DNA of 64,000 bases from an uncultured Solirubrobacteraceae bacterium (GTDB lineage Bacteria > Actinomycetota > Thermoleophilia > Solirubrobacterales > Solirubrobacteraceae), in NCBI GenBank assembly GCA_963728465.1, contig CAVSJY010000007.1:25090-89089 (forward strand). Reading direction: 5' to 3'. Numbering within the stretch: the stretch's first letter is position 1; every line of letters starts with the position of its first letter. The position numbers and the translations under genes were made by a program. Shown here piece after piece: positions 29,151-53,725 of this stretch. A model generated the notes under the pieces. It was not told the DNA's origin and made no database searches. It saw only the letters and a program-made list of their open reading frames with translations.

Positions 29151-29207
29151 GCTCGAAGTTCGCCCCCGCCGCGCCGGGTTTGTCGTACCTCGGCCATAAT
29201 CCGGCGC

Positions 29208-33628: not shown

Positions 33629-34004
33629 TCAGCCGGCCAGCGCGGAGATGCGCCACTCGTCGTCGACCCGCTGCGAGCTCGACGACGTCCTGCGACGGCT
33701 CCTGCCCGGCCGCCGACGTGCGCACCTCGGCCTTCGCCCGCTCGCCGTCGACGGTGATCTTGCCGATCGTCAGCCGCGGGTCCTGACGTCCCGAGCGCCT
33801 GCTGCAGCGCGACCTCGCACGGGCAGGCCGACCTGCTTGAGCTGTCGGGATCAGGCTGGGGCGAGGATGCGGTCGCACAGCGCCTGGTAGTCCTTGGCCT
33901 CGGTCGCGCGACCGAGGTCGGTCACCGTCGTCGCGGACCTGCTCCTCGTCGCTCGGCCCGGAGCCGCCGCAGCCGGCCAGCGCAGCGCAGCGGCGAGCGC
34001 GCAC
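33629..34004 (-). pseudogene. small lipoprotein (NTF2/DUF4878-like), frameshifted
   Basis: GTG at 34004 gives MRARRCAALAGCGGSGPSDEEQV (lipobox). Later pieces in other frames are TTVTDLGRATEAKDYQALCDRILAP and LTIGKITVDGERAKAEVRTSAAGQEPSQDVVELQRVDDEWRISALAG. Confidence 0.5.
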
Positions 34005-35479: not shown

Positions 35480-36415
35480 CTACCGGAGGTCGAAGCGGCC
35501 GATGCGGCCCTCGTCGCCCGACGCGTACCAGAGGTCGCCGCCTGGCCCGATCGTGATCGAGTCCGGCGCGCTCTTCGTGCGGACGTCGGGCCCGAACACG
35601 CCGCCGGGCGCCATCGAGCCCAGCGTGCCGGCCGAGTGCTGGCCGATCCACAGCGTGTCGCCCGCGAACGCGAGGCCGAGCGGGTCGGCGTTCGCGGTCG
35701 GCAGCGCGTAGCGCGCCGTCACGATGCCCTGAGTCGTCATCCGCGCGATCGCGTTGGTGTCGCGCTCGCCGACGTACAGCGCGCCGTCGCGGCCGGCGAC
35801 GATCGGACCGGGGAGCGTCCCGGCCGGCAGCGCGTACTCGGTGATGGCGCCGTCGGTCGTGATGCGGCCGACCTTGTCGCCGAGCGCCTCGCTGAACCAG
35901 AGCGCACCATCGGGGCCGACGGTGATGTCGGAGGCGAACGCGTCGCTCGTCGGCAGCGGGTACTCCGTGACGTCGCCCGCCGTGGTGATCCGGCCGATGC
36001 GGTCGCCGTGCGCCTCGACGAACCACAGCGCGCCGTCGGGACCGGAGACGATGTCGGTCGGGAACGAGCCGGGGTTGTGCAGCGCGTAGGCGGTCACACG
36101 GCCGCCGGCCGTGACGCGCAGGATGCGGTCGTCACGGTCGGTGACCCACAGCGCGCCGTCCTGGCCGGTCGTGACACCGGCCGGGGTGCCGCCGAGCTGC
36201 ACGAACGAGACGTTGCCCTTGGCCGAGACGCGCCACAGCCGGCCGAGGCTGCCGTCGGGCGCGTACACGGCGTCATCCGGGCCGGCGGCGATGTCGCTGG
36301 GCACCGCGAGCTGGTCGAGCTTGTACTCCTTCGCGCCTGCGACGCCGCTCGACGCGAGCGTGGCCGCGGCGACCATCGCCAGAACGGCGAGGACCCTGCG
36401 TGGGGTGAGCTTCAT
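35480..36415 (-). CDS. secreted beta-propeller protein, streptogramin-lyase (Vgb)-like repeats
   Basis: The 311-aa intact ORF has a signal peptide. It also has about 6 repeats of the pattern GPDGALWF.E...D.IGRIT..G.VTEY.LP. Confidence 0.75.
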   Translation of the reverse strand: MKLTPRRVLAVLAMVAAATLASSGVAGAKEYKLDQLAVPSDIAAGPDDAVYAPDGSLGRLWRVSAKGNVSFVQLGGTPAGVTTGQDGALWVTDRDDRILRVTAGGRVTAYALHNPGSFPTDIVSGPDGALWFVEAHGDRIGRITTAGDVTEYPLPTSDAFASDITVGPDGALWFSEALGDKVGRITTDGAITEYALPAGTLPGPIVAGRDGALYVGERDTNAIARMTTQGIVTARYALPTANADPLGLAFAGDTLWIGQHSAGTLGSMAPGGVFGPDVRTKSAPDSITIGPGGDLWYASGDEGRIGRFDLR

Positions 36416-36528: not shown

Positions 36529-38838
36529 CTAGCTCCCCAGGCGACGGAACAGCAGGTAGGCGACCGCCGCCAGGCCCGCGGCGATCAGCGCCACCAGCGG
36601 ATACACGACCGGCACCAGCGTGCCGCCCAGCGCGGCGAGGCCCGCGGCGACTACGTAGGCGGCGCCCGCGGCGACCACGGTGAGCGCCGCGACCCAGGGA
36701 CGAGCCCCCGCGAACGCGAGTCCGCCGGGGACGAGCGCCAGCATCAGGATGAGCGCCACGTCCAGGGCCGTAGGCGACTGCTTCACGGGCAGCCCGCGCC
36801 GCAGCGTCGAGATGGCGTTGGCGTGGACCTCGACCCCCGGCATCACGCGGCCGCCGTCGCCCCGCGTCGGGTGGAGATCGCCCTGCGCGCGTGCCGACGT
36901 GCCCACGACGACGATCTTGTCGGCGAGGTCGGGCACCGCGCCGTCGAGCACGTCGGTGAAGCGGACGGTCCGGAACGTGCGGGCCGGACCGGCGTAGTCG
37001 ATCACCGCGCTCTCGAAGTCGACCGCCTCGTCGCCCGCGATCTCGGAGGCGACGACGGGCAGGGTCGCGAGCCGGCTCGACTCGGGCTCCAGGCGCGCCA
37101 GGCCGGACTGTCCGACCGAACGGTCGAACTTCAGGTACGCGCCGTCGGGGTACCGCGGGAAGCCCGCGAACGCCGCGTCGGGCGCCTTCACGCCGTCGCC
37201 GAGGACAAGGCCCCTGCCCTGGTCGTCGACGAGCGTCGCGGCGAGCACCAGCCACCCGTGCGCCTCGCGGATCGCCTCCCGGAGCTGCCGATCCCCCGCC
37301 CCGGGCTCCCGGAACTCGAAGTCGTAGACGATCGCGGCCGGCGCGGCGTTCAGCAGCGAGCGGATCAGCTGCGCGTGACGGTCGCGCGGGATCACGTCGC
37401 GGCCGCCGCCGAGCTGCGCCAGCCCCTCGTCGTCGAGATCGACGACCACGATGTCCGGGTCGGCGGCCGGCGTCCCGCGGAGGTCGAAGCGGGCGTCGAC
37501 GGTCCGCAGCTCGCCGCGCTGGAGCCATTCCGGCTCGGCGGCGCGGAGCCCCAAGCCGAGGACGAACGCCGCCAGGACGCCGGCGAGGATCGCGACCCTC
37601 GTGAGCTTCGCCCGCTGGCGGTCGGCGTGCCAGCGCGCCTGCCAGTCGAGCACGGGCTGGCAGAGCACGTCGTGGAACACCTCGTAGCTCGGCGCGTCGT
37701 CGACCGGGCGCAGGATCCGCGCGTCGTCCTCGGACAGCGCCTCCAGCGGCGGCCCGATCTGCTCCTCCGTGGCCCCGGTGACCTTGGCCAGGTCCGTCCG
37801 GCGCTGGGCGACCTTGGCGCCCGACGGCGTCACGAGGTAGTGGAACGCCCCGGCCATCAGGCGCTGCTCGCTCGCGCCGAGGCGGTCCATGTTCTCGCGC
37901 AGGTGCTCGGCGACGATCTCGCGCACGCCGCCCATCTCGCGCAGCGTCGCGATGCGCAGCGTCGCCGACCCCTGCGCCGCCTCGCGGTCCCACAGGCGGC
38001 GCATCACGAGCTGGAGGTACGCCGGCTCGATGCCGTCCTGGGCCGCCGCGCCGCCGCGCGCACGGCCGGCGAACGGCTCGGGCGCGTGGAGCAGGTCCAG
38101 GACGTGCTCCGCCAGCCCGTCCTCGGCCTCGACCTGGCGCTCCGGGTGCAGCTCCCGGTAGAGGCGGATCGGACCCTCGATCGCCTCCTCGGCGTGCTCG
38201 TCGGTCATCGGCCCGACGCGCAGCAGGTTGTCGAACGGCCGCGCGGCGGCGCCCTGGAAGCGGTCGAGCTGCGCGAGCGCGTCCTCGCGCAGCGAGATCA
38301 CGACGCGCGCCCGCACATGCGGGTCGGACAGCGCGACCGGCAGCTCGCGGGCGAGCGCGTCGGCGGCGCCCGGGTGGTAGAGGAAGTGCTCCTCGAACTG
38401 GTCGAGGACGAGCATCAGCAGCGCGTCCATGCGCTCGCCGTACGCCTGGAGGGCGTCGGCCAGCGGCAGGTCGGCCGGCACGGGGTCGGCGCTGCCGCCG
38501 TTCGCGCGCGCCGCCAGCTCGCGGTCGAGCGCCCCGCGGATGGCCGTCAGCGACTCCTCCTTCCAGCTGTCGACCAGCACCACGACCCGCTCGCTGCCGC
38601 CGGGGGCCACCGGCGCCCGGTCGCGGACCTCGGGCACCACGCCGGCCCGCAGCAGCGAGCTCTTGCCGACCCCGCTCGGGCCGTAGACGACCGTCAGGCG
38701 GGAGCTCAGCAGGTTCGCGACGATCAGGTCCCGCTCGGGCTCGCGGCCGAAGAAGAACGGCGCGTCGCCCTCCTTGTACGGCGCGAGGCCGGGGAACGGC
38801 CGCGCCGCGCCGGCGGCTTCAGCGGGCGGGGCGGCCAT
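36529..38838 (-). CDS. STAND-type P-loop NTPase (nSTAND-like) fused through a TM helix to an extracytoplasmic CHASE2 domain and three C-terminal TM helices
   Basis: This is an intact 769-aa ORF. The N-terminus is PFPGLAPYKEGDAPFFFGRE, Walker A is GPSGVGKSSLL (Lys codon 38662..38664) and Walker B is LMLVLDQFEE. The first TM helix is VAILAGVLAAFVLGLGL (aa 414-432). CHASE2 hallmarks are IVVVDLDDEGL...IPRDRHAQLI...IVYDFEFREP...MPGVEVHANAISTL (about 36784..37506). Three hydrophobic helices follow to the end. Confidence 0.85.
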   Translation of the reverse strand: MAAPPAEAAGAARPFPGLAPYKEGDAPFFFGREPERDLIVANLLSSRLTVVYGPSGVGKSSLLRAGVVPEVRDRAPVAPGGSERVVVLVDSWKEESLTAIRGALDRELAARANGGSADPVPADLPLADALQAYGERMDALLMLVLDQFEEHFLYHPGAADALARELPVALSDPHVRARVVISLREDALAQLDRFQGAAARPFDNLLRVGPMTDEHAEEAIEGPIRLYRELHPERQVEAEDGLAEHVLDLLHAPEPFAGRARGGAAAQDGIEPAYLQLVMRRLWDREAAQGSATLRIATLREMGGVREIVAEHLRENMDRLGASEQRLMAGAFHYLVTPSGAKVAQRRTDLAKVTGATEEQIGPPLEALSEDDARILRPVDDAPSYEVFHDVLCQPVLDWQARWHADRQRAKLTRVAILAGVLAAFVLGLGLRAAEPEWLQRGELRTVDARFDLRGTPAADPDIVVVDLDDEGLAQLGGGRDVIPRDRHAQLIRSLLNAAPAAIVYDFEFREPGAGDRQLREAIREAHGWLVLAATLVDDQGRGLVLGDGVKAPDAAFAGFPRYPDGAYLKFDRSVGQSGLARLEPESSRLATLPVVASEIAGDEAVDFESAVIDYAGPARTFRTVRFTDVLDGAVPDLADKIVVVGTSARAQGDLHPTRGDGGRVMPGVEVHANAISTLRRGLPVKQSPTALDVALILMLALVPGGLAFAGARPWVAALTVVAAGAAYVVAAGLAALGGTLVPVVYPLVALIAAGLAAVAYLLFRRLGS

Positions 38839-39777
38839 TGCCGAGCCGCTCCTCCAGCTGGGCGACGTACGCGGCCAGCGGCTGCTCGAAGATGTCGACC
38901 TGGCGGTGGTCCCAGACCTGCCGGTCCAGCGGGTCGACCTGGAGCTGGATCGCCCACGCCGGGTAGGCGACGTCGCGCCGCGACCAGAGGTCGCGCAGCA
39001 GGACGCGCAGGTTCCAGTCGACGAGGCTGTAGCCGAGGAACAGCATCGCGCTGTTGACCAGGTGCACCAGCAGCTTCTTCGGCACGAGGCTCTCGAGGTC
39101 CGTGGTGGCGAGGAAGTCGATGTAGTGGTCCTCGCTGATCACGTAGTAGTCGTTGAACGCGCGGCGCTGCGCGCGGTCGACCGCGCCGTGGACCTTCAGG
39201 ATCACGGACTGCTCGTCGAGCCAGGATCGCGTGTCCTCGCCGGGCTTCTCGATCAGCTCCGGGTCGCCGGTCCCGCCCCGCGCACCCAGCAGCGCCCTTC
39301 GCGCGTGGCGCGGTAGTAGATCGTCGAGAACGGCTCGCCGGCCGCGTCGTAGGCCTGCTCGAGCGCGTCGTCGTAGTTCGTCGTCAGGACGAGCTGGTGC
39401 TGCCCCGTCCGCGCCGGCAGGGCGGCGAGGAAGCGGTGCACCGTGGTCGGGCCGTATTCGGCGCCGAACACGTCGTGCAGCGAGTCGCGCAGGAACGCCT
39501 CGTCCTTGAGCTGCGCGAACTGCGCGACGCGCAGCAGGTCGCCGCGGTCCCGCGGCCCTCGGGGTAGTGGTGCTCGTCCGCGAGCAGCTCGGCCAGCTCC
39601 GCGCCGTTGGGGAGGTTGTGCCCGCGGACGTACGTCTCGTCCTCCGCGCGGTCGGACAGGTTGGCGCCCGCGCCGAGCAGCGTGACCAGCCCGCCGCGCT
39701 CGAGGTTGCGCAGCACCTGCCTGTAGTGGTCCTCGGTCGGGCTGGAGCGCCTGGACGCTCATCGCGGCGCGCCTCAT
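38819..39777 (-). CDS. SIR2-like (SIR2_2, defence-type NADase fold) protein, with at least 2 apparent frameshifts (near 39735, 39560 and 39290)
   Basis: The pieces are LVTLLGAGANLS, QLVLTTNYDDALEQAY, ILKVHGAVDR (His codon 39188..39190) and MLFLGYSLVDWNLR. The ATG at 39777 overlaps the upstream stop (ATGA). The 3' end overlaps the STAND gene by 20 nt. Confidence 0.75.
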
Positions 39778-40327
39778 CGGCGGACAGGCCCGCTGCGGCC
39801 GGCGGCGGAGCGTCGCGCCGGGCTCTTGCGGCGAGGTAGCAGCGGCCGGCGCGGACGTCGACGGTCCGGCCGCCGCCGGTCCGTCACGACGACGAGCCCC
39901 TCCTTGACTTTGAAGATCGTGCCGTCGCAGCGGTCGCGCACCGTCCAGACCGTGCCGCGGCCGGACCCGCGCCCGTAGCCGCCGGCGCCGCGAAAGCCGC
40001 CCGCGCGAGCGGATCCGCATGGACGCCTCGTAGGGCAGCCGCGACGCCCGCGCCCTCTTGCAGCTCTGCGGGCCGCTGTCCAGGCGCAGCGTCGGCAGGG
40101 CGGCCGCCCCGTCGCCCTGCTCGACGGTGAACACGCCGCCGCGAACGAAGCCTGGCCGATGGTGCCCGGGCCGTCGGGCGTCGTCGTCACCGACTCGATC
40201 TCCACGGTCCCGCGCGTCGCGTCGATCGCCGTGTGCACGGGGACCTCGACCGCGGTCCGCAGGCGCGTCTGGAGCGCCGGCGGTCGACGGGGTCCTCCGC
40301 CGTGCCCGGGGCGACGAGTACGGGTCA
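39774..40327 (-). pseudogene. beta-rich secreted-protein module, either a separate ORF or the frameshifted C-terminal extension of the TolB-like protein
   Basis: The fragments are VLVAPGTAEDPVD, EVPVHTAIDATRGTVEIESV, FRGGVFTVEQGDGAAALPTLRLDSGPQSC and RGTVWTVRDRCDGTIFKVKEGLVVVTD, in at least 2 frames. I recall this pattern from C-termini of secreted proteins in related high-GC actinobacteria. Confidence 0.45.
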
Positions 40328-41242
40328 CCCGCCGGGCGCGATCGTGATGGTCTCGCCACGCTCCGGCGGCGCGACGGCGGGCGGGAGCGGCGCCCACGAG
40401 GGATCGCTGCCGGGCGCGACGGGCACGGTCCCGCCCTGGGCGCCGTCCGCGGGCATGACGTACAGGTAGTCGAACGGGACCGTGGCTGCGTATGCGATGC
40501 GCGTCCCGTCCGGCGACCAGGCGGGGAAGTGGTCGAACCCGAGCGAGTCGGCCAGCACGCGGCGGTTGCCGCCGGCGGCGTCGATGGCGTAGATGTCGAG
40601 GTCGCCGTCGTCCTCGTGCGTGTAGGCGAGCTGCGCGCCGTCGGGCGACCACGACGGGTCGGCGTCGAGACCCGGCTCCGTGGTCAGGCGCCGCAGCCCG
40701 CCGCCGGCCGGGTCGATCAGCCACAGGTCCATGTCGCCCGCCGCACGGCCGCTGGCGAACGCGATCGCGTCCCTGGATGACCACGCGGGCTGCTGGTCGA
40801 TCGCGGGGTCGAACGTGATGCGGGTCGGCAAGCCACCCGCCGCCGGCATGACGTAGAGCTCGGAGTTGCCGTCGCGCTCGCTCGCGAACGCGATCCGCGA
40901 GCCGTCCGGCGAGAACGCCGGGTCGTGGTCGCGGGCGGGGTCGGACGTGAGCCGGGTCTGGGCGCCCGTCTCCACGTCGAGCACGTAGATCTCCTCGTTG
41001 CCGTCGCGCGTGCTCGTGAACGCGAGCCGCTTCCCGTCCTGCGACCAGGCGGGGTCGCGGTCGGCGGGCCCGACCGCCACGAGGTCCGTGAGCGCGCCGG
41101 TGCCGTCCGCGTTGATCGTGGCGATCGCGGCGCCGGAGCGCTCGAAGGCGATCGGGCCGTTCGTCCCGGGGAACGCGGCCGAAGCGGGCGCCGCCGCGAC
41201 CGCGGCCACGAGCGCCGCCAGTGGGAGCGCCGCCGCCTTCAC
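40325..41242 (-). CDS. periplasmic TolB-like (PD40 / WD40-like) beta-propeller protein
   Basis: It comprises the last 305 aa of ORF 40325..44713. The GTG start at 41242 overlaps the upstream stop (GTGA). The signal peptide is VKAAALPLAALVAAVAAAPASA. It has repeated P.WSPDG..IAF.S.RDG..ELY motifs. Confidence 0.82.
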   Translation of the reverse strand: MKAAALPLAALVAAVAAAPASAAFPGTNGPIAFERSGAAIATINADGTGALTDLVAVGPADRDPAWSQDGKRLAFTSTRDGNEEIYVLDVETGAQTRLTSDPARDHDPAFSPDGSRIAFASERDGNSELYVMPAAGGLPTRITFDPAIDQQPAWSSRDAIAFASGRAAGDMDLWLIDPAGGGLRRLTTEPGLDADPSWSPDGAQLAYTHEDDGDLDIYAIDAAGGNRRVLADSLGFDHFPAWSPDGTRIAYAATVPFDYLYVMPADGAQGGTVPVAPGSDPSWAPLPPAVAPPERGETITIAPGG

Positions 41243-44200
41243 CGGCCGACCGTAGCCTGCGTCGAGAAGAGCCGGAACAGCGGATCCCCGTAGTGCTGGT
41301 ACGCGCCCCACGACCGCGCGCCGCCGCCGCTCGCGCCGGCGACCTCCTCGCGCGCGCCGCTCATCGCCTTGAACATCGGCTGCGGCTCGTCGGATTGTCC
41401 GAGCAGTGACCGGTAGAGCGTCGTCGCGAACAGGCGCGCCCCGTGGTCGTCGACCGGCCACGCCGTGCAGACGAAGTTGCCGACGCCGCGCGCGAAGAAC
41501 GACTCGGCGAAGCTCGGCGCCAGCGCTGCCGACCGCCGGCCCGAGCGGTCCGGCGTGATGCCGGACTCGCACGCGTTGGAGAACACGAACTCCGGCACCC
41601 GGTCGATCCGGCGCAGCTCGCGTGCCGCGATCGTCTGGCCGCCGGTGAAGATCCAGCCGGACCCCGCCGGGTCCTTGGCGTCGTAGAAGCAGTGGCCGGC
41701 GAAGTGCAGGACGTGGAAGCGCTTGAGGATGAGCTGCTCCAGGACGGCGGTCCGCGTCGCCTCGCGCGGGCCGAGCAGCGCCACGACCTCCACCCGCGGC
41801 GGCTCGCCGGCGCGGTTGGCCTTCTCGAACAGCTCCGCGACCTTGATCCCCTCCTCCTCGGCGCCGGGCAGGTGGGCGTCCTCGGCCGGGTCGGCGATGA
41901 CGAGCACGCGCAGCAGGCGCTCGGGCGGGGGCGGCGGCTCCGGCGGCGGCGCGAACGCGGTGCGCAGCTGCCGCGTCACCGCCGCGCCGATGCCGAGGTG
42001 CGAGTTCAGCCAGTCGGGGCTGTCCTCGGGCGTGGTGCTCGGCATCGCGTCCGCGCGCGTGACGAGCTCCCAGTGGATCCGCGCCGTCGTCGAGTCGAGC
42101 ATCAGGATCACCGGCGAGCCGCTGAGCTGCGGGCCGAGGTCTCCGGGGAACAGCAGCCGCGACAGGTAGCGGCCGTGCTCGCGGCGCCGGGTCGCGTCCG
42201 GCTCGGCCGCGAGCTGGTCGTTGGCCTCCTTCACGAGGTTCGGGTCGAGCGGGACCTCGCGCTCCGGGATCGCCGCCTTGGCGGTGATCGCGCCGAAGCG
42301 ATACGTCGCCCCCTCGCGGGTGATCGTGATGCGGGCGGGGGCCTGCTGCGTCTTGTGGTCGCGCTCGGCGCCCTCGCGCCAGCGCCGCCTGGCGGCCTCG
42401 AGGTCGGTGGCCAGCGCGCGCCGGCGCCACTTCTCCTTCGTCGCCGCGTCGGCGGGCGTGTAGCGGGCGATCAGCCGCTGCTCCTCGGCCATCCGGCGCT
42501 GCGCCACCCCCAGCGCCTCGTCGATCTCGTGCAGCCGGCGCGCGTCGAACTCCACGAACGTCACCGCCCGCACGGCCGAGTCGGCGATCTGCCCGTTGAG
42601 CGCCTGCGCGATGCCCCGCATCCAGGCCGTGATCGCGTCGGCCGGCGGCAGGTTGCCGGTGCCCGCGCCGATCAGCACCGCGGCGACGTGGCGGCGCCCG
42701 ATGCGGCCCGCCGCCCAGCACAGCTCGCGGGCCACCAGCGTCAGCTCGCCCGTGCCGAAGCGCCCGGGCACGCCCATGCCGGCGAGCATGATCAGCCTTC
42801 CGCCCGCGCGGCGGCGGGGGTCGGGCAGGACGAACGGCTGCCCGAGCTGGCCGGTGATCGTGCCGCGCAGCGACAGGTGCGCGATCAGTCCCTCGTGCGG
42901 CAGGCCGGCCGGCGCGCCCCGCGGCGCCGCCTCGCTGAGCGCGAAGTCGAGCGCGGCCTCGGCGGCCTGCGGCTGGACGCCCTCGTAGTGGCCGACGGCG
43001 ATCACGTCGGGCTTGAAGCCCGCGAGCGCCGGAGCCGTGTGCGCCTGGCCGACGTTGCCGTTCCAGAGCCCGATCTCGATCGCGGGCGGCTTCGCCTTGC
43101 GCACGGGCCGGCCGCCGCCGGGCTCGGTCTCGCCCGCGGCGGGCCGGAGGCCGAGCCAGTCGCGGACCACGAGGTCCTCCACGTGGCGCTCCTGCTCGCT
43201 GACCGCCACGGGCGCGGAGGCCGGCGGGTCGCCGCGGCCGAGCGTGCCGTCGTCGCGCGACCCGAGCCGCCGCATCGACTCGCGCATGCGGGCCTCGTCC
43301 TCCGCCGCCTCGCGCTCCGCGGTCGCGCGCAGCGACGCCGGATCGCCGCCGCCGCGGCTCGCGGGCGGCTTGGTCTTCAGGCGCTTGGTCCGGCCTCCGA
43401 GCAGCAGGTCGCCGACCGCGTCGAGGACGGCGGCGTCGCTCGTCAGCGCCCCGTGCGAGACCGGCGCGAAGTAGCGGGTGACGCCGGGCAGGTCGCCGAG
43501 CGCGTGTGGGACGCGGCCGTCGCCGTCGGTGCCGTACTGGTAGGCGGAGGGATCGCCGACGCCGGCCGTGTCGAGGCCCACCACCGTCCGCTGGCCGCTG
43601 CCCGCGACGGCCACCATGCGGGCCGGGTCGGCGACCGGCGCCAGCAGCTCGTGCACCGCCTTCGCCGCGTCGAGGTGGCGCTGGGACACGGCGGCGCCGT
43701 CGTACGTGTCCGCCAGGTACAGCGGCTCGGCGCCCGGCACGGCGGGCGAGGGCAGCATCTGGAACGTGCCGGGGAAGGTGTTGAGCACCTCGCGGACCTC
43801 CGCGAGCCCGAGCCGCAGGTCGGCCAGCGCCAGCAGCCGGACGTGCTCCTCCAGGCCGGCGATGCCGCGCGGCACGTCGTAGGAGCCCTGGTTCGGGACG
43901 CCGAGCATGATCAGCCGGCCGCCGCGCGGGCCGGGCTTGTCGGGCGACCCGTCGCACATCGCGGCCCACTGCTCGGGGTGGGCGGCGACGAACGCGCGCG
44001 CGACGAGCCCGCCCATCGAGTGCGCGACCAGGTGGACCGGCTCGGCGGGGAACCAGCGCTCGATCGCGGCGGCCAGCTCGTCCGCGCTCGTGCGCAGGTC
44101 CTTGCGCCAGTCGTAGGCGAACGCCTGCACGCGCCAGCGCTGGGAGAGGTGCATCAGCAGCTCGCCGTAGTAGCGCTTGAGGATGCCGGCCGTCTGCACG

Positions 44201-44614
44201 CGGCAGCCGGGGTCGCGCTCGCGCTCGCCGGTCGGGTCGAGCGCGAGGTTCGCCACGCCGCCGGAGATGAGCGGGAGCGCCTGGAGCCAGATCAGCGACG
44301 GGCGGTCGCCCTCCTTCTCCGCCGCGCGCGCCAGCGCGGCGCCCATCGAGCCGTGCAGCACCACGACGTTGCCGGCCGGCTCGGCCTCGCCGCGGGTGAG
44401 GTTGCGGTCCAGCGCCCGCTGGTGCATGCGCTGGTAGCGGTCTGCGCCCGAAGTACGCGATCAGGGCCTCCTGCTCGCGCACGCTCGGGCGCGCGAGCAG
44501 GCGGGCGAGCTCCTCCGGCCCGGCCGCCTCGACGGAGGCGATGAACTGCCGCTCATCCAGCTGCGCAGACAATGGTTCCGCCTCACCCGTTCGGTGTCCG
44601 GCCGACCCTGCCAT
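41239..44614 (-). CDS. multidomain protein: helical N-terminus, LCAT/PGAP1-like alpha/beta hydrolase, Macro/LAP-N-like middle domain, C-terminal CHAT protease; one apparent frameshift near 44440
   Basis: ORF 41239..44427 (1062 aa) is intact. The lipase part has FAYDWRKDL and the nucleophile elbow AHSMGG (Ser codon 44017..44019). CHAT has His in HFAGH and Cys in SNACESG (Cys codon 41569..41571). About 60 further N-terminal residues (MAGSAGH...QEALIAYFG) lie in the frame of ORF 40325..44713, from ATG 44614. Confidence 0.82.
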
Positions 44615-44699
44615 AGAAGTGGGCGGGGGTGCAACTTGACCCACGGACGCCGCCGCGGGGAGGATCGCCGGGACGGCTACGCCGGCGAGCGCCTCCGAC

Positions 44700-47600
44700 A
44701 TGGCGGAACACACGAGTGCAACCGACGTCCGGGACTTCGTCGTACCGGCGCCGGCTCAGGCGGAGATCCGCGACTTCGACTGCTGGGCGGTCGTGGTGGG
44801 CATCTCCAAGCACGCCGCCCCGGAGATCGACCTCCGCTACGCCGCACGAGACGCCCAGTCGTTCAGCGACGTGCTCCGCTCGCCGGACGCGGGCGGTTTC
44901 CGCGACGAGCGCCTGCACGTCCTCCTGGACCACGAGGCGACGACCTCGGGGCTCACCCACGCGTTCCGCACCGTCCTCAAGAAGCCGGCCCGCGAAGACC
45001 TCGTGGTGATCTACCTCGCCTGCCACGCGGTTCCGGATCCCGACCGCCCGGACAACCTCTACATCGTCACCCACGACACCCGGCCGGACGACATCTCGGG
45101 CACGGCGCTGCCCATGCTCGAGGTCCAGAACGCCATCAGGCGCACGCTGCACGCACGGCGCGTCGTCCTCCTCGCCGACATGTGCCACAGCGGCGCCATC
45201 GGCGACCGCTACGGGGCGCGGGCGGCCGCGGACCGGACGCACGTGGTCAACGCCTTCCTGCGCGGCGTCAGCGACGCGGGCGAGGGCATCGCGATGCTGA
45301 GCGCCGCCGAGGCCAACGAGGTCGCTCGCGAAGACAGGGAGCACGACAAGAAATGGGACGGGCACGGCGTCTTCACGCACTTCCTCCTGCGCGGGCTGGC
45401 CGGCGAGGCCGACCGCTCGCCGCGCGACGGAACCGTGACCGTCGGCGAGCTGTTCGACTACGTCCGCGAGCAGGTCCCCCTGGCCACCGAGAACCTCCAG
45501 CATCCCGCCATCGGCCCCGCGCGGTTCGATCGCGACCTCACGCTGGCGATCACCGCGTCGAAGCTCGCGATCGCCGAGCTCTCGCTGGGACGCGGTCTCC
45601 GGCACCTGGCTCAGCGCTGGGACGACGACGGCGTCTTCGCAGCCGCCGCTCGGCACCTCGCCGAGTCCGTCCGGATGTCCGAGCGCGTCGGCGGCGCCTC
45701 GGCCGACGTGTACGTCGAGCTCGCGCTCGCGCACCTCGCCACGAGTCAGCGATCACGGACCGACACGAACGCCGCGGGCAGGCTGCTTGCCGGCGACGAG
45801 CGCGACTCGGGCGGCTCGGCGGCTCGGCGGCGCCTCGCACGACGACTTCAGCGAGGCGCTGCGAACGCTCGCGGCGGCTGCCGCCAAGACGTCGGATCCG
45901 GCGGCGGCGGACGCCCGCTTCCATCTCGGGCTCGCATTCGCGAAGGGCGGCGACCGGGCGCAGGCCCGTCGAGCTCCTCGAGCAGTTCGCGGCGTCGTTC
46001 CCGGACGATGCTCGGGCGGAATGGGCGGGCTGGGCGGCGCGCGAGCTCCTCGCGCGAGCGGACGGCACCTCCGAGCTCGATCCCGTATGGCTGTACGAGT
46101 TCGCGGAGTTGAGGCCCGCGGCCGAGATCGCGCCAGCCGAGCTCGCGCGCCGACACGACCTGGTCGTCGAGCGCTGCCCGCCCTACCCGCAGCTCCAGCT
46201 CGCGTTCGGAAGGGCGCTCCAGCGGACGGCCGCGGAGACGCTCGCCGCGCCGCTTCGCGATCTCGTCGAGGAGCTCGACCGCCGCCTGGACGGCCCGGCG
46301 GGCTCGGGCGAGGACCTCTTCCATCGCGGCCTGGCCCGCGAGCTGCTCGGCGAACGCGACGCGGCCCTGGACGACCTCGAGCGGGCGAGCAGCTCCCAGG
46401 ACGGCAAGCGCCTGGCGAACGTGCACTACCAATACGCCCGCGCGCTGCGGGACAGCGGCGGCAACCTGCATCGCGCCCGGTCCGAGCTGGACATCGCGAT
46501 CGAGCTTGCGCCCGGGCACAAAGGCGCGCAACGACTGGGGCCGTTGATCGACGGAGCGCTCAGGGCCGCCGATAGAGCGCGCGAACGGGATGCCGCGCCC
46601 GGTCGCGAGCCGGGCTACGTCGCGGAGGACTCCGACGACATCCTCGGCTCGCTTGGCGGCTCGATCGTCCACGAGGAGCTGAAGGGCTGCCCCAGCCGCG
46701 CGGCCGCGCGTTCGGGGCCCGCGCTGGCGCGGGCGCGCGACGCTGGCGACGCCGCGGCCGTCGCGACGGCGCTCGCCGACCACGGCTCGCGCTCCTGCTC
46801 TGGGGCTTTCCCAGCGCCGCGCGCGAGCACCTGCTGGAGGCGATGCGAGTGGGTCCGCCCGCGACGGCGCTGAGGGCCGGCCTGTACGAGCGCCTCGCGA
46901 GCGCTGCCCGCTTCAACGCGTTCCCCGACGGGCAGGGCGCCGGCGCGGCGGAGATCAACGCCCGCTGGAACGCGATCGCCGACGAGAGCGCCGCCGCCGG
47001 GCGGCTCGAGCGCCTCGCGCAGGAGGCGGAGGGCTCACCGGTCCTCCAGCTCCGCCGCTGGACGAGGATCCTCGGGCTGCTGCCGCCGATTCGCAACACG
47101 CTCGAGCTGATGCGGACGATGCCCGACCCGCCGGCGCGATTCGTGGAGATGGCGCTGGCCGAGCTGCTCTCGCTGGAGGGCGACGACGACCGCGTCCCTG
47201 CGGCATGGACCGCCTACGCGCAGCTCGCGGCCGCCGACCTGTGCCGGCGCGGCGGCGAGCAGGAGCGCGGGCTCGCGCTGCTCGATCGCGCTCGCGACAC
47301 CTACGGCGCGGCGGGCGACCGCACAGGCGTGGGCGCCTGCCACCTGGCTCGCGGCGACTGGCAGGCCGCGCCGTTCAGCTCTCCGCTCAGCCTCAATCTC
47401 GCACTGCGCGAGAGCGCGTCGGAGGGCAGCGACCTCGACTGGCAGGTCGAGGAGGCGGAGTTCAGCCTGGCCGGCGCCGACCTGGATGCGGCGCGGGCCG
47501 CCTACGACGCGGCCGAGGAGGCCTTCGCGGGCGCGGGCGCGGGCCGCGGCCTCGCCGCGGTCGAGCTGCGGCGCGGCTATCTCGACGTGCTCGCCGACGA

Positions 47601-50307
47601 CCATGCCGCGGCCCGCCGGCGCTGCCGGACGGCGATGTTCGCGTTCCTCGCCGAGGGCGATCACGTCGGCTTCCAGCTCGCCTCCATCCACGCGGCGCTC
47701 GCCGCGATCGGCGCCGGGGCGTTGAACGAGGATCGTACCGCGGCCGCCGGCGCGGGCGGCTGGGGCGCCGGCGACGGCAGCTTCAGCCTCGCGCTCGGCC
47801 TCGGCCTGCTGTGCGGGCGGGCCGGCCGGCACTGGCGGCTCCGGCGCGGCGACGCCGAGCGGGCGCTTGCCTGTCACCGCCTCGCGGGATCGCTGTACGA
47901 AGCGCTCGGCGCGCGGCTGAACCTCGCCCAGAGCCTGGTCGACCAGTCGGACGTGCTGCGCTGGGTCGGCGACGCCGCCGGGGCGACCGTCGCCTACGAG
48001 CGCGCGGTCGCCGCGACGGCGGAGTCGTCCGGCGCCGTCGCGCGCAAGCGCGGGCTGCTGCTCGCGACCGAGGTCGCGCAGCTCCACCACGCGCGCCAGG
48101 ACGCCGACGGCATGGAGCGGGCCGCGGCGCAGCTGCGGGAGCGGCTCGAGGCGTTCGACCCCGGTTCGGAGCCCGACGGGCAGGCGATCGCGACGCTCGC
48201 GGCCGACCAGCTGTCCGGGCTCCCGGCGGCGATCCCGCTGGCGCGCGCCATGGCGCTCCGCGAGGCGGGCCGGATGGAGGAGGCGGCGCCGCACTTCGCC
48301 GAGGCGCTGGCGGCTACGCGCGAGTCCACCACCGAGCAGCGTCCGCTCCTCGAGGCGTCCGTGCTCGGCTCGCAGGAGCGCTATGCGGAGGCGCTCGAGG
48401 CGTATCGGCGCTACGCCGCGCTGCGCGACGGGGACGCCGGCACCGCCGCGACGCTGGCGCGCGTCCTCGGTCCGGCGCAGGTCGCACGCTTCCGGCGCCA
48501 GGCGCTCGAGCAGAACCTGGCGTTCTTCACGCGCGTGAAGGCGTGGGAAGGGGCGCGAGAGGCGGCGAACGAGCTCGAGGAGCTCGGCGGCGCCGAGTGG
48601 TGGCAGGACGACGAGCGCCCGTGGGCGATGCTCTCCGACCTCGGCGAGGTGGCCGAGGGGCTCGGCGAGCTGGAGCGCGCGCTCGACCGCTACGAGCAGG
48701 CGTTCGACGCGTACGAGGCGCGGCGCGGGCTGCTCGGCCGGCGAGGGGCTGCGGACGGCCCTCGGCGCGTCCAAGGACGTCCAGTGGCTCGGCGTCCTCT
48801 CGGCGCGCTGCGCGCTGCGGCTGGCCGATGCCGGCGATCCGACGGGGCTCCTGCGCGCGTTCGCGCTCGCCGAGCGTGGCAAGGCGCGCGTGCTGCTGGA
48901 CCTGATGGCGCGGAGCGCCGCGCGCAGCAGCGGGCGGCTCGGCGAGCCGCCCGCCCGCCGCCGCTGGCGCGAGCTCGGCGCGCGCGGCGGACGTCTCCGC
49001 CCAGCTGCTGAGCCGCCACCGCGCGACGGGCGCCGAGGAGGTCTCCGCCCTCGAGCAGCGGCTGCGCGCCGACCAGGCCGCCCTGCGCGACGCGGAGGAG
49101 GAGCTAGCGCGCTCGGACCCGGCGTGGCTCGGCGGCATGCGCGCGACCGGCGAGGTCGCCCCGCTGGAGGAGGTCGCGGCGGCCGTGCCCGCGGGCGCGG
49201 CGCTGCTCCAGTGGGTGTTCCTCGGTCACGACCTGCTGGCGTGGGCGATCACGCGCGACGGGATGGTCGCGCACGCCCGCCGCGAGCTCGACGCGCGCGC
49301 GCTGGGCCGCGCGATCCGCGAGCTGCGCACCGCCTGCGAGTCCCGCGCCGGCGACTGGGAGCGGCGCGCCGCCGAGCTCGCGGACCCGCTGCTCGCGCCG
49401 TTCGCCGGCGTGCTCGCCGACCACGAGCGCGCTGATCTTCGTGCCCTACGGCGTCGCCCACGAGCTGCCGCTGCACGTGCTGCCGTTCGAGGGCGTGCCG
49501 CTCGCGGCCACGCACACCGTCTCGACGCTCCCGAGCGCGAGCGTGCTGCCGCACCTGCGCGGCGGCGGCGCGCGACCGTGGCGGGTGCTCGCGGTCGGCA
49601 ACCCGGCACGGATGAGCCACCGGCCGCCGGGCGCCGCGCGCGCGGCGCCCGCGGCGCCGCTGCGCGGGGCGGAGCTGGAGGCCGAGCTGGCGGCCGCCGC
49701 GTTCCCCGGCGGCGTCGCGCTCACCGGTGAGGCGGCGACCGAGCCGGCGGTGCGCGAGCGGCTCGGAGAGTTCTCGATCCTGCACCTCGCCACCCACGGC
49801 ATCCTCGACCAGGAGGCGCCCGGCATGTCCGCCGTCCTGCTCGCCGACGGCGAGGCGCTCAGCGTCTACGAGCTCGCCGGCCTCGAGCTCGACGTCGACC
49901 TCGCGGTGCTGAGCGCGTGCCGTACGGGCCAGGGCGAAACGACGCGCGGCGACGACGTCGTCGGGCTCGCCCGCGGGCTGCTCGGCGCGGGCTGCCGCGC
50001 CGCGGTGGTCAGCCTGTGGCCCGTCGACGACGCCTCGACGACGCTGCTCATGGCGGCGTTCTATCGCGAGCTCCAGGGCGGCGCCGGGCCGGCGGACGCC
50101 CTGCGGGCGAGCGCGCTGCACGTGCGCGGGCTCAGCCGGGCTGACTCCGCGGCCGAGCTCGTGGAGCTGCGCCCGGGCGTGGCAGAGGGCGCGCGCGACA
50201 TCCTCGGCCTGCGGAGCGCGGACGCCGCCGCGGGCTATGACCACCCGTACCACTGGGCGCCGTTCGCGCTCGTCGGCACGGGCCTGACACGAAGGGACAC
50301 CCCATGA
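44700..50307 (+). CDS. caspase-like peptidase C14 + long TPR/helical-repeat array + C-terminal CHAT domain. Reads as one ~1870-aa protein if ~6 apparent frameshifts are bridged; alternatively two genes split near 46843
   Basis: C14 has His in VIYLACHA (45024..45026) and Cys in ADMCHSGA (45183..45185). The helical repeats run through the frames of ORFs 45787.., 44594.. and 46843..49011. CHAT is in ORF 49441..50307, with His in LHLATHG (49795..49797) and Cys in LSACRTG (49918..49920). At 46790 the text reads through (ATALADHG|LALLLWGFPSAARAHLLEAM). Confidence 0.7.
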
Positions 50308-52250
50308 GCGGACGCCGCCTGGCGCTGCTCGTCGGCATCGACGAGTACCCGAACCTTGCGCCCCGCGCAGCAGCTCCAGGGGCTGCGTCAACGACGCGGA
50401 GCTGATGGCCGGACGTGCTCACGAGCCGGTTCGGCTTCCACGAGGCGGACATCACGCTGCTGCGCAACGCCGAGGCGTCGCGCGACGGCGATCCTGGCCG
50501 CCTTCGACGAGCTCGTCGACGACGTCGACGCCGGACGACGTGGTGCGTCGTGCACTACAGCGGCCACGGCTCGCAGATGACCGACCGCGAGGGCGACGAG
50601 GCGGACGGGCTCGACGAGACGATCGTGCCCGTCGGACTCCGGTCGCGCGCACGGCGCCCGAACCGCGACATCACCGACGACGAGATCTACGACTGGCTGA
50701 CGCGGCTGACCGCCAAGACGCAGCTGGTCACGCTCGTCTTCGACTGCTGCCACTCGGGCACGGTCACGCGCGACGTCGTGCGCGGCGCGCACGTGCGGCG
50801 GATCGAGCCGGACCTGCGCCCGCCGGAGGAGCTGCCGCCGTCGCCGGTCGCCTCGCGCGCGGCGACGCGCGGCGCCGGGCCGAGCGGCTGGCTGCCGCCC
50901 GGGCGGCGCTACACGCTGATCGCCGGCTGCCGCGACGAGGAGCTCTCGCACGAGCACGACACGCCCGACGGCGCCGACGCACGGCGCGCTGACGTGGTTC
51001 CTCACGCGCGCGCTCAGCGACCGCGCGCGCCGGGCGCGACCTACCGCGACGTGTTCGAGCCGGCCGCGCTCGGCGTCACGACGGCTGTACCCGAGCCAGC
51101 ATCCGCAGATCGAGGGCGCGATCGACCGCGAGGTGTTCGGGGTCGCGGAGCGCGAGCCGGAGCGCGTTCGTGCCGGTCTGGACGCGCGCGCGGCGACGGC
51201 GTGACGCTCGGCGGCGGCGCCGCGCAGGGCGTGGCAGGTCGGGTCGCGCTGGGGCGTGTCGGCGACGGCGACGAGGCGCCGGTCGGCATCGCTGCGCGTC
51301 ACCGCGGCGCGGGCGACGACGGCGACGGCGAGGTCGTCGAGGAGATCGCGGCCGAGCGATCGCGGCGCCGGCGCGCGCGGCGTTCGCGGACGGGCGGCAC
51401 CCGGCGGCGCCGCGGCTGCGCGTCGCCGCTCGCCGGACGAGCTGGCCGAGCTGGCCGAGCTCGATCGACGCGCACGTCGCTCGAGCTGCGTCGAGCGCGG
51501 ACGACGGGCCGACGCGCGCGTGCTGGTCCTCGGGCCGCGCGACGCGGTCGGCGGCGGACGACCCGGTGCCGCAGCTCGGGCCGCTGACCGAGCCGACGGT
51601 CGCGGTCGTCGGCGCGCGACGGGCGCCTGCTGCTGCCCCGGCGCAGGCCGGCGAGCCGGCGCGCGCTCGCAGCAGGTGCGCGACGACCTCGAGACGTCGC
51701 GCGCTACCGGCGGCGTGCTCGCGCTCGAGAACCCGGGCGGGCCGCTCGCCGGCGCAGGTCGAGCTGACGCTGCTGCGCCGCGCCGCCGACGGCAGCGTGG
51801 GTCGGCGCGAGCCGGAGGCGGCGGGCGGCGAGGTCGTCTACGAGGCCGGCGAGCCGATCGGCATGCGGATCACAGAGCCTGCACGACGCGCTCGCTCTAC
51901 CCGGCGGTGCTCGACCTCGGGCTCGCCTACGCGCGTCGAGCATCGCCGCAGCCGTACGCGGGCAAGGAGGAGCTCGAGCCGCGGGCCGCGGTCGAGATCG
52001 GCACCCGGCCGGGCGAGGAGCTGCCGCTCGGCTTCCCGGACGCGTTCCCGTTCGGCGGCGACGCCGACGACGACCGACAGCGGCATCGAGACGGTCAAGC
52101 TGCTCGTCGACGACGCGAGCCGGCCGACTACACCGTCGCTGCTGCAGGCGGGCGTGACGCGCGACTTCGCGCGCCGGCGCCGCAAGCCGGCGGCGACTGG
52201 GGCGCGGTGACGCGCAGCTTCCGGCTGCGCAAGCCGACGACGGCGGTGCC
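50304..52250 (+). pseudogene. second caspase-like peptidase C14 protein with a beta-rich (DUF4384-like) C-terminal region; at least 8 apparent frameshifts, 3' boundary uncertain
   Basis: The ATG overlaps the preceding stop (ATGA 50304..50307). The pieces are LALLVGIDEYPN, GCVNDAELMA, VVHYSGHGS (His 50565..50567), DGLDETIVP, NRDITDDEIYDWL and VFDCCHSGT (Cys-Cys 50745..50750). Later pieces are VELTLLRRAADGS..GEVVYEAGEPIGMRIT and GGDWGAVTRSFRLRK. Confidence 0.7.
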
Positions 52251-53725
52251 GCTCGGCCGAGACCGGCGAGGCGGTGGCAGGCGGGCGGCGTCGAGCTGTC
52301 GACGCCGGGCCTGTCCGGGCGGCGCGACGGCGCTCGGCGAGCGGCGGCGGGCGGACGCGATCGCCGCTCGGCTGCGCCAGCCGCGCGCTCGAGGGCGTGC
52401 TGGCGCTCGGAGGGCCTCGACGTCGCAGGCGGCGGTCGAGCTCGACGGTCGCGGCGGCGCGGACGCGCGCGCGTCGGCGACGGGGCCGCCGGCGGCGATC
52501 GAGCTGCGCCCGCCGGCGCCCGCGGCCGGCGAGGGCCAGATGGTGCTCGCCGAGGACGAGGCGGGCGTGCTCACGCTGGCACTTCGCGGCCGCCGTCACG
52601 CGCAGCGCTCGACGACGGCGGCGCGCGCCGACGTACCGCATCGACCGCGCGCGTGCTCGTCGACGCGGTGGCCGAGCCGGGGACGCGCGGCCTCGTCGGC
52701 GCGATCGGCAAGAAGGTGCTCAAGGTGCTCGTCTTCCCGCTGATCGAGCCGGCGATCGGCGAGGTCGCGGACTACTTCGCGGGCAAGTGGGAGGCGAAGA
52801 AGCGGCCGTACCGGCTGCGCTGCTCGCACCCCGGACGACTTCGCGACGCCGGGCGGCGCGCGACGTCGAGGCGCGCCGACTGGGACACGCTGTCCGGGAA
52901 GCGGGCGCTGCTGCTCGTGCACGGCACGTTCAGCCGCTCGCACTCGGGCTTCGGCGCGCTGCCGCCGCGACGCGTTCGAGGAGCTCTACCGCCGGTACGA
53001 GGGCCGCGTGATCGCGCTCGACCACTTCACGCTCTCGCACACGCCGCGGCAGAACGTCGAGTGGCTGCGCGGGCCGCGTCCCGGACGGCGCGGACCTCGA
53101 CGTCGACATCGTCTGCCACTCGCGCGGCGGGCTCGTCTCGCGCACGCTGGCCGAGCACCAGAGCGAGCTCTCGCTCGGCGGCAAGCAGGTGACGGTGCAA
53201 CGCGTCGATCTTCGTCGCCACGCCGAACGCCGGCACCACGCTCGCCGACGCCGACCACATCGGCGACATGATCGACACGTACACGAACGTGTTCAACTTC
53301 TTCCCGGACAACGGCGTCACCGAGGTGCTCGAGGGCATCGTCACGGTCGCCAAGATGATCGCCGTCGGGCGCCGTGAAGGGGCTGGACGGCCTCACCTCG
53401 ATGGTGCCGGGCGGCGAGTTCCAGAGGCTGGCTGAACACGGGCGCCGGCGCCGCAGGGGACGACGCTACTTCGCGCTCGCGGCCGACTACGAGCCGACCG
53501 CGCCCGGGCTCGCCGGCTTCGCCAAGGACTGGCTGATGGACAAGGTGTTCGCGCACGCCAACGACCTCGTCGTCCCGACCGACGGCGTGTTCGCCAAGAA
53601 CGGCGCGAGCCTGTTCCCGATCGAGCAGCGCCACGTCTTCGCGAGCGGCGACGGCGTCGTCGCACACGACGTTCTTCGCCCACCCCAAGACCCGCGAGAA
53701 GCTTCTGGCATGGTTGGGCTCGTGA
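52250..53725 (+). pseudogene. alpha/beta hydrolase (lipase-like, HSRGG nucleophile elbow) with an N-terminal extension; at least 5 apparent frameshifts, 5' boundary uncertain (could be fused to the preceding caspase)
   Basis: The pieces are GQMVLAEDEAGVLT, GLVGAIGKKVLKVLVFPLIEPAIGEVADYFAGKWEAKKRPYRLR, ALLLVHGTFS, GRVIALDHFTLSHTPRQNVEWL and DVDIVCHSRGGLVSR (Ser codon 53120..53122). Later pieces are FVATPNAGT, YFALAADYEP and NDLVVPTDG. The stop is TGA 53723..53725. Confidence 0.65.

Follow-up and report, generated by a model that had tools for sequence, protein, structure and literature searches.

In a 64,000-nucleotide (nt) stretch of DNA from an uncultured Solirubrobacteraceae bacterium (contig CAVSJY010000007.1, forward strand; hereafter the window), we analysed a locus at 44700–50307 that opens with a caspase-like Peptidase_C14 domain and closes with a CHAT protease domain. 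Its reading frame switches six times, and after repair we lean towards reading the locus as a real, continuous open reading frame (ORF) of 1868 amino acids (aa), a lineage-specific read-through fusion of a caspase module, here CaspA′, with a CHAT module, here CHAT1. The fusion most likely reflects a recent event confined to this lineage, either a deletion or the loss of a stop codon, and not a selected architecture; if the single chain is real, we regard it as an accident of the lineage because orthologues consistently encode two proteins. Such an in-frame joining of C14 and CHAT would possibly be unique among the proteins searched. The locus divides into three parts.

44700–46523, plus strand: CaspA′ module, with Peptidase_C14 at about 44784–45512 and then helical, tetratricopeptide repeat (TPR)-like remnants (Pfam, family profile).
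46524–46618, plus strand: joint between the modules, about 95 nt (codon usage, frames, homology limits).
46619–50307, plus strand: CHAT1 module, with the N-terminal motif LGGSIVHEELKGCP, about 900 aa of helical repeats, a C-terminal CHAT domain at about 49432–50295 and the stop TGA 50305–50307 (Pfam, orthologues).

The original prediction of a C14 domain at the 5′ end and a CHAT domain at the 3′ end, each with an intact catalytic dyad, was confirmed by Pfam and by the positions of the motifs. Peptidase_C14 (PF00656) matches within 44700–45800 at 35.6 bits against a gathering cut-off of 21.4 (E = 1e-8, aa 29–271), and CHAT (PF12770) matches within 49414–50304 at 194.8 bits against a cut-off of 24 (E = 2.7e-57). 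The caspase His lies in YLACHAVPD (45024–45026) and the Cys in LADMCHSGA (45183–45185), and the core motifs ACH and DMCHSG align with the family consensus ACHG and DtCHSG. The CHAT dyad is likewise complete (His in HLATHG, 49795–49797; Cys in LSACRTG, 49918–49920), with the His of ATHG and the Cys of SACRTG invariant across a six-sequence alignment.

Frame switches as assembly indels

With a GC content of 71–79% across the window, we read the coding frame from GC by codon position (GC3), a six-state frame hidden Markov model (HMM) and homology. Both domains are ordinary members of their Pfam families. At 75% GC an open frame alone is no evidence of coding: off-frame ORFs of 1033 and 615 aa run across this region, where stops number about 10 per 2100 codons in any frame. 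GC3 and the frame HMM place the coding strand on plus over 44.7–50.3 kb, and within it the coding frame passes from mod0 to mod1, mod2, mod1, mod2, mod0 and mod1, changing near 45.8, 45.96, 46.8, 48.7, 48.95 and 49.4 kb. A near-identical contig, L003 (ENA ERZ25039586 contig_22134; 99.6% identical), has indels exactly at all six switches. The roughly six switches of the original prediction were thereby borne out, each indel falling within about 60 nt of the position predicted for it. The six indels, and a seventh site where the two contigs disagree the opposite way, are as follows.

45808, plus strand: indel 1; the window is without a GG found in L003 (mod0 to mod1), and the repair draws on L003 and GC3 only.
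45970, plus strand: indel 2; extra C in the window (mod1 to mod2), by L003 and GC3, with the caspase-family profile aligning across.
46783, plus strand: indel 3; the window is without a G (mod2 to mod1), inside CHAT1, by L003 and matches of the orthologue P0122.
48735, plus strand: indel 4; extra C in the window (mod1 to mod2), by L003 and orthologue matches.
48985, plus strand: indel 5; extra C in the window (mod2 to mod0), by L003 and orthologue matches.
49433, plus strand: indel 6; extra T in the window (mod0 to mod1), by L003, the repaired reading ADHERAIFVPYG agreeing with orthologues.
46074, plus strand: the sole site of opposite disagreement; L003 is without an A, which would give a 470-aa caspase ending at TGA 46110 and a next gene from TTG 46108.

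High-scoring segment pairs (HSPs) of P0122 flank indel 3, at 46652–46726 in mod2 and 46786–48747 in mod1, and all four switches of the CHAT gene (46783–49433) are crossed by orthologue HSPs in the predicted frames. Applying the six L003 edits to the window yields the open 1868-codon ORF, from ATG 44700 to TGA 50305–50307. The same shifting occurs elsewhere in the window: the plus-strand region for methylmalonyl-CoA mutase, MeaB and a sugar kinase (29206–33675) falls into 17 frame segments. By these sequence comparisons, the six switches do not reflect biology but consensus indel errors in a noisy metagenome-assembled genome (MAG), because a distinct strain repairs all six, orthologues or the family profile cross five, and other genes of the window are likewise shifted. 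Frameshift density is uneven along the window, with 21–27 kb clean (ccr, for example, is intact at 22033–23280, 415 aa, its nearest named relatives being Solirubrobacteraceae MAGs at 82% identity); the unevenness may stem from local coverage or from strain mixture in the metagenome consensus.

Assembly noise accounts for most of what looks odd about the locus, namely the six frameshifts and a supposed junction at 46790, and the public annotation consists of meaningless fragments. Its gene calls cut the locus at the errors, giving one product from TTG 46108–46873 (254 aa, P0125) and another from GTG 46849–49011 (720 aa, P0121), the last ~100 residues of which are an Arg-rich off-frame tail. The earlier proposal that the peptide continues across 46790 held up, with an added G at 46783 in L003 and P0122 aligning across. 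As a gene boundary, 46790 or ATG 46843 was rejected: the site lies 45 codons inside the CHAT gene, and orthologues read through it. Nor is ATG 46843 the only internal start, as had been supposed, given that TTG 46108 and TTG 46544 lie in mod2 and the public annotation uses GTG 46849. All these start candidates are irrelevant because the CHAT module begins upstream, at ~46620–46652.

The two contigs differ by 14 coding substitutions, 9 at codon position 3 and 8 synonymous. Such a bias marks real variation between strains under purifying selection, so L003 is no second polish of the same reads. All 14 substitutions lie in CHAT1 (46640–50010), whereas the 1.9-kb caspase module has none (P ~0.002 under a uniform distribution); the first of them, at 46640, falls on the module boundary. 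This distribution points to a separate and more recent history of the caspase module, for example through recombination or a sweep. L003 also carries private indels: besides the A missing at 46074, deletions at 50223 and 50271 break conserved CHAT sequence, and an in-frame GCG is added at 49778.

The order of L003 is itself permuted. Window positions 49419–50289 come first and are followed directly by 44695–49417, with adjacent ends, so that the contig is almost exactly the fused ORF, either circularly permuted or collapsed from a tandem duplication. The junction (50289 to 44695) reads GGGCCT/ACATGGCGG, with GACA/CCT microhomology, and the 870-nt CHAT 3′ part, which contains the added GCG at 49778, diverges from the window about three times as strongly as the remainder does. 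The permuted order may come from an assembler artefact, from a circle or from a tandem duplication present in that strain.

Two modules from separate families

On sequence, CaspA′ is a shortened member of a bacterial caspase-TPR family whose proteins span 1100–1250 aa. Its N-terminal ~450 aa are 47–55% identical to that family, with P0002 reaching 55% over 44700–45743 (tblastn). A 20-member family profile is collinear with the module: nodes 1–412 correspond to aa 1–450 (511 bits), nodes 644–699 to aa 455–515 and nodes 1011–1110 to aa 512–608. Members such as P0001, P0002 and P0017 of Ornithinimicrobium pekingense, annotated as ‘caspase family protein’ or ‘uncharacterized caspase-like protein’, share with CaspA′ the N-terminus, the dyad motifs and the collinear middle and C-terminal TPR blocks. 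In contrast to them, CaspA′ is without nodes 413–643 and 700–1010, without the conserved last ~55 residues (YLGQAIR...GAPLG...EV..FL) and without a stop of its own. A C-terminal profile of the family stops matching at 46523 (‘...ELAPGHK’), and this tail, the last 55 nodes of the 20-member profile, has no counterpart in any frame. A MAFFT alignment had hinted at a diverged caspase tail within 46524–46650, and we rejected this candidate on the silence of the same profile beyond 46523.

CHAT1 belongs with stand-alone proteins of ~1220–1240 aa that are 54–60% identical to it and align from LGGSIVHEELKGCP (46652–46693; LGGSIVxEELKG) to the stop. P0122 (Logan, 1223 aa) is 54% identical over aa 648–1860 of the stitched protein; the chat1 gene of L007 (1238 aa) is 59% identical, that of L008 60% and that of L009 57%, and L010 is a partial locus. 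At 4 of 5 loci (L002, L008, L009 and L010) the orthologue starts 12–14 codons before the motif at 46652, with in-frame stops upstream; at L007, chat1 is a called 1238-aa gene whose start falls outside the DNA examined. The DNA upstream of the orthologue starts is unrelated or non-coding, and no caspase was found upstream of the CHAT1 orthologues within 10 kb (L008), 5.3 kb (L010), 0.7 kb (L002) or 0.4 kb (L009). CHAT1 was absent from the isolate genomes in the scanned genome-contig collection, which contains neither a cultured relative nor a clean reference.

By sequence, the helical region between the catalytic domains is only marginally TPR (E 0.003–0.005), and so is the CHAT1 profile. In an AlphaFold (AF2) model of the homologue P0005 (pLDDT 82, pTM 0.77), helix hairpins make up ~680 aa ahead of the CHAT fold, and the Foldseek matches of this model are separase, Csx29 and DdvA at E ~1e-11 to 1e-10. 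As modelled, CHAT1 is a helical-repeat CHAT protease of the separase/Csx29 fold type. Sequence searches against all chains of the Protein Data Bank (PDB), Csx29 included, gave no match to CHAT1 (phmmer with P0122; a CHAT1-orthologue profile), and searches of the PDB with single proteins gave none either; a profile of a broader CHAT alignment was dominated by generic TPR proteins and is uninformative on CHAT1. P0005, which comes from a Frankia MAG, proved unusable as a test of fusion, being cut at a contig end. Of the continuous helical repeats originally described between the two catalytic domains, the helical character stood; a single TPR-like array did not, for there are two unrelated modules, a 95-nt joint and marginal TPR signal.

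The joint and the single-chain reading

We place the module boundary at 46524–46650 because caspase homology stops at 46523 and CHAT orthologues begin 12–14 codons before 46652. The joint (46524–46618) shows homology to neither family. Codon-usage log-odds for mod2 are negative over 46500–46590 and positive from ~46596, with the other frames near zero or negative; coding usage in mod2 resumes at ~46596, where orthologue start codons would fall. Codons of the joint include the rare AAA, CAA, CGA, GGA and AGA. In mod2 it contains no stop and one in-frame TTG (46544), with off-frame stops at TGA 46545 and TAG 46573, and the peptide DAAPGREPGYVAEDSDDILGSLGGSIVHEELK of the repaired ORF spans the module boundary. 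A scan of 44300–47000 found no promoters or terminators, and such a scan is uninformative for a high-GC actinobacterium. The joint resembles a once intergenic stretch through which reading now continues, both the caspase tail with its stop and the CHAT1 start codon having gone.

The window equals L003 base for base over 46075–46782 save one substitution, and the two are identical across the joint. An independent error shared at the joint is improbable, at roughly 0.1%, because the other indel errors of the two assemblies never coincide; a systematic error is possible. The original prediction of one protein carrying both C14 and CHAT survives in part. No stop interrupts the repaired frame, although the 1868-aa ORF is a hybrid of two error-prone assemblies, and the same fusion does not recur in orthologues. 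The orthologue check proposed with that prediction returned two separate proteins consistently, in 5 of 5 CHAT1 orthologues and ~90 caspase homologues.

Several points weigh against the continuous fusion. The joint resembles an intergenic spacer in its non-coding-like codon usage, and ~32 stop-free codons are weak evidence at this GC. One base fewer in GGGGCC (46537–46542) would give ‘...QRLGR-TGA’ at 46545, overlapping TTG 46544 (TTGA) in the overlap style of the cluster. Both assemblies are error-rich, and L003 disagrees with the window at 46074. None of the five CHAT1 orthologues extends into a caspase, and none of the ~90 caspase homologues has a real CHAT domain. Searches of 5.8 billion word-indexed and 1.84 billion HMMER-scanned proteins turned up no fused relative, and no match to the stitched protein spans both halves (top coverage 55%).

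The alternative we take most seriously, though we consider it doubtful, is two adjacent genes: the caspase would stop within the joint, perhaps at TGA 46545, given a difference of one base, or at a miscalled stop, CHAT1 would be translated separately, and the two assemblies would share a seventh residual consensus error. Every relative found keeps the two genes apart, mod0 outscores mod2 over 46500–46545 in the non-coding-like joint, and TTGA at 46544–46547 mimics the ATGA/TTGA overlaps of the cluster; the window, moreover, already has at least 6 indel errors in 5.6 kb. Yet assemblies of different strains agree exactly over the joint while none of their other indel errors coincide. A hidden stop needs an extra base in both, whereas the private indels of L003 that can be judged are deletions (50223, 50271 and probably 46074); the GCG added at 49778 can be classed neither as an error nor as a variant. 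TTG 46544, for its part, has merely a weak GGGG three bases upstream.

Beyond the continuous reading frame itself lies a bolder claim, which we think unlikely: a natural single polypeptide in which an active N-terminal C14 domain and an active C-terminal CHAT domain are separated by a ~1200-residue helical scaffold. In such a protein the cascade would be tethered in cis, with a sensor-activated CHAT domain releasing or activating its own caspase, and the protein would owe its origin to a very recent read-through fusion in a non-CRISPR CHAT/caspase conflict cluster from soil Thermoleophilia.

Less probable again, and to our minds improbable outright, is that the split seen in L003 is real. On this account a 470-aa caspase ends at TGA 46110, the gene from TTG 46108 joins the C-terminal TPR remnant of the caspase to CHAT1, and the catalytic domains sit on separate chains with a fusion still present. 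With the A at 46074 missing, the gene caller indeed called P0123, a protein of 470 aa, and after it a gene of >1102 aa, in a TTGA overlap, and 46074 lies just past the breakpoint of a family-level deletion (profile nodes 412 to 644). The window version has the better GC3 (11/13) and retains the family-collinear order. The missing A is probably an L003 error, because the tail it creates, GSIPYGCTSSRS, uses rare codons (TAT, TGT and AGT), the family holds these segments on one polypeptide in the same order, and the other private deletions (50223 and 50271) break conserved CHAT sequence and are errors.

A decaying pseudogene, with genuine frameshift mutations and no production of either protease, is very improbable: six switches within 5.6 kb and the loss of two internal blocks and the tail of the caspase module relative to its family would fit decay, but housekeeping genes such as the mutase region at 29–34 kb show equal switch density, a 99.6% identical strain is free of all six switches, both dyads and all family motifs are intact, and CHAT1 substitutions favour synonymous sites.

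Gene neighbourhood

The locus is followed by a second caspase gene, here CaspB, and preceded by two genes on the minus strand.

50304–53716, plus strand: CaspB, second caspase, with Peptidase_C14 (E = 5e-10) and then DUF7379 (E = 3e-52), alpha/beta-hydrolase-like (Pfam, tblastn).
40325–44565, minus strand: divergent alpha/beta-hydrolase (LCAT-like)–CHAT–PD40 beta-propeller protein (PD40 E = 1e-41, CHAT E = 4e-25, LCAT/Hydrolase_4 E = 2e-5).
36529–40324, minus strand: SIR2_2–nSTAND1 NTPase–CHASE2 (membrane) protein, start approximate (nSTAND1, PF20703, E = 2e-47; CHASE2 E = 1e-34; SIR2_2 E = 6e-19).

The ATG of CaspB (50304) overlaps the CHAT1 stop as ATGA, and at least 8 frame switches occur within CaspB relative to its orthologue. 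CaspB is orthologous to genes lying 3′ of CHAT1 in L002 and L007 (L007_casp1131 is 62% identical at the start; tblastn), and the ATGA-type overlap between CHAT1 and CaspB is present in the window, L002 and L007 alike. CaspB-like genes also lie near CHAT1 in L008 and are convergent in L009. Judged from this gene order, CaspB, rather than the upstream caspase, is the conserved partner of CHAT1.

L007 (1–13336) holds an intact array of chat1 (1238 aa), caspB (1131 aa), chat2 (1021 aa, TPR_12-rich) and caspA (P0002, 1111 aa), with 4-nt overlaps or 3-nt gaps between genes; of the clusters available, this one serves best as a template for the ancestral arrangement. Its caspA is among the closest homologues of the N-terminal caspase of the window. 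At L004–L006 (~10001–20343 in L004), the gene for P0124, a more distant relative with a CHAT domain, converges on a C14 gene of 695 aa. Genes for a cyclic nucleotide monophosphate (cNMP)-binding protein and a guanylate-cyclase/AAA ATPase flank the P0124 locus, a possible sign that this version uses nucleotide signalling.

In the window, the hydrolase–CHAT–PD40 gene encodes the third clan-CD protease of the island, with the CHAT motifs HFAGHC and SNACESG and with 132-nt DNA repeats at 40481–41063. Adjoining the STAND gene, a 126-nt tandem repeat (2.3 copies, 35776–36066, minus strand) lies in a gene for a secreted beta-propeller-like repeat protein with GPDGALWF... units. From its gene content, the 36–54 kb stretch looks like a conflict or defence island. 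Tandem Repeats Finder (TRF) found no array of clustered regularly interspaced short palindromic repeats (CRISPR) in the window, and Rfam gave no match. Among the frame-corrected translations of the 64 kb (the first 27 kb by eye only) we saw no Cas-like protein, only housekeeping genes and the protease/STAND island. PADLOC returned its generic ‘caspase’ model and a weak BovA match, and no catalogued defence system.

Comparison with known protease systems

The closest functional precedent comes from Haliangium ochraceum, in a type III-B CRISPR system coupled to a cyclic-oligonucleotide-based antiphage signalling system (CBASS): there, activated SAVED-CHAT cleaves and activates PCaspase, which cleaves many targets, as demonstrated experimentally (Steens et al., doi 10.1101/2023.06.23.546230). 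SAVED-CHAT and PCaspase are likewise encoded by neighbouring CHAT and C14 genes, both with intact His/Cys dyads, and their logic offers the best model at present for the CHAT1–CaspB pair and possibly for CaspA′. Unlike that system, CHAT1 has no SAVED domain, its Pfam matches being limited to CHAT and weak TPR; the window translations show neither Cas10 nor a CD-NTase, and the window has no CRISPR. The sensor arm here consists of ~900 aa of helical repeats, the caspases have TPR or DUF7379 extensions and one caspase is possibly fused. A sequence relation between the two systems is undetectable beyond the Pfam domains.

Csx29, the type III-E TPR-CHAT protease of Craspase, shares the layout of an N-terminal helical arm and a C-terminal CHAT domain. 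The P0005 model matches Csx29 chains 8d9g_A, 8eey_B and 7y84_C at E ~1e-10, with TM-scores of only 0.3–0.46. CHAT1, at ~1220 aa, compares with ~650–735 residues in these chains; the window holds no Cas7-11/gRAMP, array or Csx30/31, and there is no sequence-level match. The original analogy to the type III-E TPR-CHAT protease is borne out at the level of the fold, by the P0005 model, and fails for Cas7-11, a CRISPR array and a sequence match to Csx29. We exclude type III-E because neither the genomic association nor the sequence similarity was found; the locus is neither a type III-E nor a SAVED-CHAT system.

Two further comparisons are more distant. Separase is a eukaryotic clan CD cohesin protease. 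It gave the top Foldseek match (9hma, 9hn0_B; E ~1e-11) and likewise places a long helical arm ahead of its caspase-like/CHAT catalytic domain, although identity is 11%, the TM-score is ~0.2–0.35 and the genomic context is unrelated. For conflict systems built on STAND NTPases, the paper that defines nSTAND1 lists caspase-like peptidases and SIR2 as effectors (Kaur et al., eLife 2021, PMC8195603). As in those systems, the cluster here brings together several caspase-superfamily peptidases with repeat proteins and a SIR2–nSTAND1 gene. The proteases of the window, in contrast, lie on the strand opposite the NTPase gene, and no linking effector-associated adaptor domain was identified, no search for adaptor domains (effector-associated domain (EAD) or Death-like) having been made.

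Proposed function and significance

We infer that the locus belongs to a conflict island, within a caspase/CHAT cluster whose likely function is a proteolytic cascade from CHAT to caspase. The long helical arm of CHAT1 would serve as a sensor or scaffold that senses a ligand or partner; sensing would activate the CHAT protease, which would cleave and activate a partner caspase, and the activated caspase would degrade cellular proteins. CaspB, to which CHAT1 is translationally coupled, is a candidate substrate, and in this lineage a caspase tethered in cis may be another. We propose this cascade because of the gene neighbourhood and the analogy with activation of PCaspase by SAVED-CHAT. The protease cascade suggested by the original prediction is thus still reasonable by analogy with that precedent, with the downstream caspase (50304 onwards) as the conserved partner.

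A CHAT–caspase cascade has so far been shown only downstream of CRISPR/CBASS signalling. The pairing of CHAT with caspase genes recurs in this locus, in L002, L007, L008 and L009 and in L004–L006, without a CRISPR or cyclic-nucleotide module, in uncultured soil Actinomycetota, which is new but modest. Were the fusion true, it would offer a ready-made single-chain version in which to study activation in cis. The pairing of caspases with a protease bearing a separase/Csx29-like helical arm points to a wider family in which a sensor protease may act on an executioner caspase.

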